A DNA stretch of 64,000 bases from Ruminiclostridium sp. GTDB lineage: Bacteria; Bacillota; Clostridia; Oscillospirales; Ruminococcaceae. The DNA lies in contig JAFQUH010000006.1 in assembly GCA_017408635.1 (NCBI GenBank), positions 2,903 through 66,902 on the forward strand, in the 5' to 3' direction. Below the pieces are notes generated by a model. The model had not been told where the DNA came from, did no database searches, and saw only the letters and a list, made by a program, of their open reading frames with translations. The position numbers were made by a program, and so were the translations under genes. Below are positions 53,349 to 53,646 of the stretch, in pieces; position 1 is the stretch's first letter, and every line of letters starts with the position of its first letter.

Positions 53349-53646
53349 GAAAGAGAGCTCCCAGGAGCTCTCTTCAGTGTGTAGACAAAGTCATTTGTCT
53401 ACACACTGTCAGACGATGAAAAACGCACGCAGACGAGGAAACTGACGTCGTCGGCGTACGATGGTACGTTAGACGTCAGTTGACGAAGTAAGCAAAAATG
53501 CTTTAGGGGAGCCGTTTGCGGCTCCCCTAAACTTTTATAATGAAATTTTCGTTTAAAAGATAAAGCTATTACAAAACGCTTGCATTTTTGCGGTGCGTGA
53601 GTTTGTCTTCATTCTGAAGAGAGCTTCCAGGAGTTCTCTCTTTTTT
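53349..53646 (+). repeat. terminator-associated structured repeat, copy B (core 53375-53615, internally shortened; host hairpin duplicated)
   Basis: Both ends and the internal hairpin match copies A and C. The hairpin GAGAGCTC-ccag-GAGCTCTC at 53349-53375 recurs with two C>T changes at 53616-53640, followed by T6. Confidence 0.9.

Follow-up and report, generated by a model that had tools for sequence, protein, structure and literature searches.

Three folded repeats in a Ruminiclostridium contig as probable IS1182-related MITEs that target and duplicate hairpins

ISCbo5 of C. botulinum group III sits in terminator hairpins at gene ends (PMC3098183), and IS1272/TnSha1 of staphylococci, a member of the IS1182 family, targets DNA secondary structures, mostly terminator hairpins, with no primary-sequence specificity (PMC4923244). 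ISBma2-type elements carry 5' terminators (PMC2965389), and the mechanism of the IS1182 transposase family is listed as unknown (PMC6199540). MITEs described for other IS families are small, high-copy, intergenic, ORF-less and strongly folding; some contain terminator-like hairpins that affect neighbouring transcripts, and their target duplications are short and fixed (e.g. TA) or absent. To our knowledge, no described MITE of these families duplicates a whole target hairpin. A literature search on MITEs found none derived from IS1182, and the term IS1182 is absent from a 2024 review of prokaryotic MITEs.

The window analysed here is a 64,000-nt stretch of a contig labelled Ruminiclostridium sp. 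(JAFQUH010000006.1) that contains three related repeats, copies A, B and C, all co-oriented with their upstream gene (Table 1). We conclude that these are very probably MITEs related to the IS1182 family, which carry no gene, target hairpins and duplicate them. They share with the MITEs of other IS families the small size, high copy number, intergenic position, lack of ORFs and strong folding, and differ from them in what is duplicated. In their choice of target they resemble IS1272/TnSha1; for IS1272, partial deletion of the hairpin without duplication has been reported (PMC4923244), whereas the MITE duplicates the hairpin intact. Class C group II introns also home to the 3' side of intrinsic terminator stem-loops but, unlike the MITE, they have a ribozyme and a reverse transcriptase, make no target duplication and lack inverted repeats.

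Copy B is selfish mobile DNA and not a new kind of RNA gene. The MITE is 236–340 nt long and has no coding capacity. The only ORF, a small basic frame of 66 codons in copy A, is broken by 1-nt indels in the long copies L012, L077 and L104 and stops after 9 codons in copy B; being unconserved, it was rejected as a gene. The window has no match to Rfam 15 at the gathering score and only sub-threshold noise at permissive settings, a search of papers for the literal MITE sequence found none, and copies A, B and C contain no convincing site for an internal outward promoter.

Table 1. Positions in the window of the three MITE copies, their flanking hairpins and the parts of the element.
Feature	Position	Strand	Remark
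Copy A, long form (335 nt)	34766..35100	+	
Copy A, left duplicated hairpin AGCAGGGCAAATGCCCTGCTTT	34744..34765	.	22/22 identical to right copy
Copy A, right duplicated hairpin, then T-run	35101..35122	.	
Copy B, complete short form (243 nt), CAGTGTG...CATTCTGA	53375..53617	+	full-length match to family profile
Copy B, left copy of duplicated target hairpin, AGAGAGCTCCCAGGAGCTCTCT	53352..53373	.	
Copy B, right copy of duplicated target hairpin, 2 C>T	53618..53639	.	
Copy C, long form (336 nt)	54666..55001	+	no duplication
P0, left-end hairpin: left terminal inverted repeat paired with its own complement	53375..53408	+	
P1 5' strand, internal inverted copy of right end	53412..53431	+	pairs with 53594–53614
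P2/P3 arm	53437..53484	+	P2 53437–53448 with 53473–53484; P3 53453–53470
P4 5' strand GCAAAAATGC, invariant	53492..53501	+	complement GCATTTTTGC at 53582–53591
P5, internal G+C-rich hairpin with T-runs on both strands	53502..53531	.	bidirectional terminator-like
Variable A+T-rich spacer	53532..53581	+	
Right arm GCATTTTTGC + GGTGCGTGAGTTTGTCTTCATTCTGA	53582..53617	+	P4 3', P1 3', right terminal inverted repeat ending CTGA
Module 1 of long forms, hairpin TTGATTTTGACC/GGTCAAAATCG	34818..34860	+	absent from B
Module 2, in P3 loop: ACGGCA/TGCCGT, and GCGAACAC/GTGTTCGC around GTGCATC/GATGCAC	34876..34947	+	absent from B

The helices are seen already when copy B is folded as a single sequence, and measured against shuffles the folds give z = -13 for copy B and -15.7 for copy A. 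A near-invariant stretch, CAGACGAGGAAA, lies before the P2/P3 arm and belongs, with TTGACGAAGTAAGC and GCGGTGCGTG, to the unpaired stretches that stay invariant. P4, with neither variation nor covariation in 47 copies, is a putative pairing. In each of the three window copies P5 is scored as a terminator in both directions. On the plus strand, 41/47 copies have at least four T within 9 nt after it, and the tract expected to serve as U-run on the minus strand is the same in 47/47. Judged by these letters P5 looks like a putative bidirectional intrinsic terminator.

The family extends well beyond the window. A scan pattern consisting of two invariant motifs, AAGCAAAAATGC ... GCATTTTTG, matched at least 104 stretches in the genome collection; among the matches listed, most are in MAGs of gut and rumen Clostridia labelled Ruminiclostridium, Oscillospiraceae or Acutalibacteraceae (about 20 MITE loci come from a single MAG), the remainder being scattered chance matches in unrelated phyla. 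The species of MAG RGIG8806 is one example of a MITE-rich host. An nhmmer profile search gave 90 matches across 69 loci. The plasmid collection had no MITE match and the phage collection only one, to a divergent copy. The commonest form, of 236–245 nt, is that of copy B (35 of about 57 complete copies); four full-length copies are of about 310 nt, and about nine, like A and C, of about 338 nt. The 310-nt form is the short form with a 68-nt two-hairpin module in the P3 loop, and the 338-nt form has this module and, in addition, a further hairpin in exchange for CAGACGAGGAAA.

These length classes bear on the earlier note, in which copy B was held to have suffered deletions. Two blocks of about 27 nt and 68 nt that are present in A and C are indeed missing from B, and the second falls, as described, exactly within the loop closed by CGTAC/GTACG. 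The direction of change was misread: since the short form is the commonest, and the only one in divergent subfamilies, both blocks are gains in the A/C lineage. The modules were found nowhere outside MITE copies in the sequences collected. Both carry compensated changes, GTGCATC/GATGCAC versus GTGCGTC/GACGCAC in module 2 and TTGATTTTGACC versus TTGTTTTTGACC, with the arm matching, in module 1.

Three divergent stretches deserve mention. The copy at L001:1303-1542, on a contig from human faeces labelled Bacteriophage sp. (MT835999.1), has the same architecture with all stem sequences different, and is flanked by a 16-bp A+T palindromic direct repeat; either the MITE also enters phage DNA or the contig is bacterial. 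In the copy at L039:3100-3396 the closing helix P1 is wholly replaced (GTAAATAGCCGCACG/CGTGCGGCTATTTAC), and a partial right end of a second copy precedes it in tandem. A stretch on an IMG/VR contig, L002:2893-3030 (-), has only AAGCAAAAATGC and GCATTTTTGCGGTGCGT in common with the family, its helices being unrecognisable; a very remote relationship or coincidence could account for this.

The ends of the MITE are CAGnnTGTnGAnAAA ... CTGA, with a left end of the form CAG(nn)TGT(n)GA(n)AAA and, as its complement, a right end ...GTCTTCAGTCTGA. The left end CAGCGTGTAGACAAAG agrees with the reverse complement of the right end, CAGACTGAAGACAAAC, at 12/16 positions, and the two ends change together across subfamilies. 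A direct duplication of 16–35 bp is present at 33 of the 43 copies for which both flanks are available. Its sequence differs from locus to locus, with no conserved flanking motif, and each duplication is one complete stem-loop whose limits lie 0–3 nt from the base of the stem. An A-rich tract precedes the left hairpin copy and a T-rich tract follows the right one; after the right hairpin of copy B a T-run extends to 53646, and we read the two together as the half of the original terminator that stayed intact. Crude ORF calls place most copies between convergent genes: the downstream gene is on the opposite strand at 43/51 and the upstream gene on the same strand at 38/53. We take these whole-hairpin direct repeats as an insertion footprint: a mobile element enters at the base of a terminator hairpin, and the hairpin is duplicated in the process. 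Reconstructed empty sites were looked for among the sequences collected and none was found.

Two groups of copies do not show this arrangement, and a simple cut-and-duplicate model predicts neither. About seven copies, including copy C (with hairpins at 54643–54665 and 55002–55023) and those at L034, L046:3359, L054, L067, L077:1500 and L104, lie between two different hairpins, possibly through insertion between the adjacent terminators of convergent genes or through recombination between copies. About twelve others lack the first (5') arm of P0 (L033:4068-4292, L044:6801-7018, L048:7204-7410, L065:4924-5141, L083:3669-3871, L078:252-479 and others). These arm-less copies start within or just past the P0 loop and are also missing the left target hairpin; often they directly adjoin the upstream gene's stop codon. 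They look like deletions running from the base of one hairpin to the loop of the next, and recall the partial hairpin deletions reported for IS1272. We also considered a composite transposon made up of copy B, the gene beside it and copy C, and rejected it: copy B is flanked by a duplication of its own, and GAGAGC/GCTCTC is all that the outer hairpins have in common.

The same footprint is found at autonomous elements. ISCbo5 on plasmid p3BKT015925 begins with CAGGCTGTTGATAAAC, folded on its own complement, ends with ...TTGAACAATCTGA and lies between the two copies of a 29-bp hairpin; a search with its transposase returns proteins that bear the NCBI names IS1182, ISCno1 and ISBma2. We delimited eleven further IS elements in genomes and metagenomes by their duplications. 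All twelve copies have CAGryTGyTGAyAAA at both ends. The autonomous elements are 1564–1707 bp long, encode transposases of 454–474 aa (Pfam DUF772, DDE_Tnp_1, DDE_Tnp_1_6), form a hairpin at the left end or immediately within it, and lie between whole-hairpin duplications of 13–31 bp. One terminator stands at their left end and a second ahead of their right end (cf. PMC2965389). The right end of the MITE, CAGACTGTCGATAAACCCAC in reverse complement, matches CAGACTGTTGATAAACCCCC of the element at L152 at 18/20 positions, and its left end CAGATTGTTGAAAAAG matches the right end of ISCbo5, CAGATTGTTCAAAAAG, at 15/16. From matching ends and a common hairpin footprint we infer that the copies in the window are MITEs of the IS1182 family. 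With the ISCbo5/ISCno1/ISBma2 clade they share the end motif CAGnnTGyTGAyAAA ... CTGA, a left-end hairpin, insertion at terminator hairpins of gene ends and duplication of the whole hairpin at variable length (13–31 bp in the IS copies, 16–35 bp in the MITE).

The MITE differs from that clade in having no transposase gene, in its length (236–340 nt versus about 1.6 kb) and in P0, which lacks the T-run of the left-end hairpins of autonomous copies. Its interior is not a deletion derivative of any IS compared but a conserved body of its own, built of many hairpins and with optional modules. No autonomous element with the internal sequence of the MITE was found among 86 IS1182 loci, where the profile gave similarity at the level of the tips only. 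Within MITE loci, a search for autonomous copies by inverted-end pairs, with and without duplications, found none (a relaxed version returned noise), and the multi-copy ORFs included no transposase. A tblastn search with five IS1182 transposases had no match in 808 kb of MITE-bearing loci plus the window, and a second large protein search added nothing on the co-occurrence of MITE and transposase. An IS1182 transposase is present in a MAG labelled Ruminiclostridium sp. (P0013), which may be a different genome from that of the MITE host. MAGs usually lose multi-copy IS.

The features above suggest a route of insertion. A DDE transposase supplied in trans would recognise the ends CAGnnTGTnGAnAAA ... 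CTGA and join them to both sides of a palindrome, usually a terminator between convergent genes, the site of attack probably being the base of a hairpin or cruciform that has been extruded. The whole hairpin, however long, would then be duplicated as the staggered joints are repaired. Joining to the two sides of an extruded palindrome makes the duplication as long as the palindrome, as is seen over a two-fold range. Such an insertion would part the hairpin from its U-tract on each side, leaving the inner side of each hairpin copy with no U-run; P5, with T-runs on both strands, could stop transcripts arriving from either neighbour and so would replace the split terminator. The other stems are the left end folded on itself (P0), the right end paired with its internal inverted copy (P1), the P2/P3 arm and, in A and C, the optional modules. 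These stems may be kept because lineages that keep their hairpins go on spreading or being tolerated; for a multi-copy selfish element, conservation across subfamilies would reflect the needs of spreading or of tolerance, and such a reason may hold for the P2/P3 arm and the invariant junctions. Alternatively, template switching from arm to arm in DNA palindromes may help to restore complementarity.

The earlier note started from paired differences between the copies, and the individual observations hold. In the 5' hairpin, A and C have CAGCGTG..CACGCTG where B has CAGTGTG..CACACTG; in the internal stem, TTTAGGGAAGCC/GGCTTCCCTAAA of A and C corresponds to TTTAGGGGAGCC/GGCTCCCCTAAA of B. With these paired changes both stems of B stay perfectly paired. 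In copy C an A>G change creates a G·U pair that exists on the plus strand alone; the P0 stem of C has 14 pairs on that strand and 12 on the minus. Both C>T changes in the right flanking hairpin of copy B give G·U on the plus strand (-10.3 kcal/mol, versus -6.2 on the minus strand). The paired changes are not, as had been supposed, B's own. In an alignment of 47 copies the same states are common to sub-lineages (pair 4-31, CG:25 UA:7 AU:3; pair 136-161, AU:21 GC:21), and so they are inherited polymorphisms rather than events in copy B.

We counted covariation on a structure-blind MAFFT alignment of 47 non-redundant copies, the kind of check on homologues that the earlier note had proposed. Paired cells amount to 98.8%, and 33/68 pairs have changed on both sides; 0/500 shuffles reach any of the covariation measures. 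When partners were slid by 1–3 columns, pairing fell to 32–45% and double changes from 284 to 22–58 cells. Most of the signal is in the local hairpins P0, P2, P3 and P5, and in the P2/P3 arm both sides have changed in 7/9 and 4/6 pairs. The long-range helix P1 covaries as well, with a G>T matched by a C>A at L057 and the whole helix replaced at L039. The claim of selection on secondary structure stands insofar as stems, those of the optional modules included, are kept by compensatory change, in which selection and a DNA-level mechanism may each have a share.

An explanation for which there is a real, if lesser, chance is that the paired substitutions are largely a by-product of mutation, through intrastrand template switching (quasipalindrome correction), arm-to-arm conversion and loop inversions. 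A single event would then copy a change from one arm to the other, and hairpins would perpetuate themselves without any RNA function. The loop of P5 (columns 142-155) is instructive here, being TTTT or AAAA with identical stems in at least three stem backgrounds (GGGGAGCC, CCGCAGCC, TGTGGAGCC; L089, L081, L032, L034 and L078 versus L004, L043 and L027). This is one inversion in DNA but four simultaneous changes for an RNA, and it is the signature that loop inversion or template switching leaves in a hairpin; such processes can also carry a change from arm to arm. Single-event rearrangements of hairpins at the DNA level thus occur in this family, and part of the apparent compensation may therefore be mutational. 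That covariation is mostly confined to P0, P2, P3, P5 and the modules, that stems are almost wholly Watson-Crick (G·U in 75/3025 cells) and that P5 shows no strand bias (six G·U, six A·C) all agree with this explanation. Against it, helices persist in subfamilies with entirely different stem sequences, P1 covaries over a long range, and the plus strand has more G·U than A·C (75:15 in total, with 20:3 for P1 and 33:1 for P3), which is unexpected of a strand-symmetric DNA process. Conversion accounts for joint changes of a pair, but not for the conserved architecture or the unpaired junctions. The G·U excess and the invariant junctions go beyond a DNA-level process alone; with the excess in P1 and P3, the invariant stretches also exceed what a transposase would need at the tips.

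We regard it as unlikely, though worth stating, that the conserved plus-strand fold with its invariant junctions, in which P1 closes the P2/P3 and P4/P5 arms, acts in hairpin-targeted transposition or constitutes a terminator cassette that the host needs. In the first case it would act as ssDNA or RNA, for example by offering the IS1182 transposase the ends in hairpin form or by imitating its terminator target; in the second it would be a portable 3'-UTR with terminator on which the host has come to depend.

It is also quite improbable, in our judgement, that the core P1–P4 and the invariant junctions are a functional plus-strand RNA riding on the mobile element, as a 3'-UTR stabiliser, a regulatory module or a cofactor of transposition. 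Such an RNA would fit the covariation in helices other than P4, the near-invariant unpaired junctions, the plus-strand excess of G·U and the co-orientation of the three window copies with their upstream gene. The earlier note's choice of the plus strand was borne out, since this strand folds better in the alignment (-63.5 versus -47.4 kcal/mol). An RNA gene would have to be reconciled with the lack of an Rfam family and of a convincing internal promoter, with a P4 that is invariant and only putatively paired, and with the 'invariant' CAGACGAGGAAA being swapped for another hairpin in long forms. Next to genes in tandem, 13 copies are antisense and 6 sense, as counted from crude ORF calls, of which at least one, that for L065, is contradicted by the sequence. 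P5 and its T-run, moreover, sit between the two strands of both P1 and P4, so a transcript ending at P5 could form neither helix. Of the two kinds of object proposed earlier, a folded RNA or ssDNA hairpins, we retain that the MITE belongs to a system in which hairpins in DNA play a part, and set aside a free-standing RNA gene, for which Rfam offers no counterpart.

The proposal of a substrate for a hairpin-specific recombinase, of HUH or integron type, fared worse. IS200/IS605-type elements have neither target duplications nor terminal inverted repeats, and insert beside a fixed tetra- or pentanucleotide. A palindrome-associated single-strand transposon remnant of this type, or an integron-like ssDNA site, would fit the hairpin-rich ends, and strand-biased wobble pairs would suit a single-stranded intermediate, but it is very improbable given duplications of 16–35 bp, clear inverted repeats, the absence of a conserved flanking motif and ends that match a DDE-transposase family. 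The hairpin that is 'read' is instead that of the target, a terminator, and it is duplicated. A retroelement homing to terminators, whether an ORF-less class C group II intron or a SINE-like element, is scarcely credible: insertion right after terminator hairpins would fit and duplications of variable length recall target-primed reverse transcription, but 243 nt is far below what the domains of a group II ribozyme need, Rfam has no intron match, class C introns leave the hairpin unduplicated, and the terminal inverted repeats are common to a DNA transposon family.

Some neighbouring features of the window were recorded in passing. The gene converging on copy C (55037–57802, -) encodes an SbcC/Rad50-like ATPase (AAA_23, SbcC_Walker_B) and is adjoined by an ORF at 57799–58938. 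SbcCD cleaves DNA hairpins; the presence of such a gene beside hairpin-rich copy C is probably a coincidence. Upstream of copy A, the product of the gene at 33946–34731 has DUF5023 and, at its N-terminus, a methylation motif of prepilin type. A 100-nt direct repeat of 76% identity (39448–39547 and 40246–40345, in the adjacent ORFs 38925–39716 and 39765–40748) has the look of the region around the conserved ATP-binding motif in two ABC-type ATPase genes that lie side by side. Three 45-nt direct repeats at 30977–31270 (64–80% identity) lie within an 867-aa ORF (30081–32684) and form an internally repetitive segment of its protein.

As probable IS1182-related MITEs, the three puzzling repeats of the window and about 70 others elsewhere are explained as a single family, now tied to a poorly understood group of transposons. 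When genomes of gut Clostridia are annotated, these elements can serve as markers of terminators between convergent genes, which they would also rebuild. For the discovery of RNA motifs they are a caution, in that hairpin-rich mobile DNA can show textbook covariation that arises partly through events at the DNA level. The 33 MITE and 12 IS insertions in which the duplication is one complete hairpin form a natural data set; the agreement over 13–35 bp argues that the enzyme measures structure and not distance, and that attack at the base of an extruded cruciform is the simplest route. If the plus-strand fold does act in transposition, or is a cassette on which the host depends, it would give a first mechanistic handle on the IS1182 transposase family.
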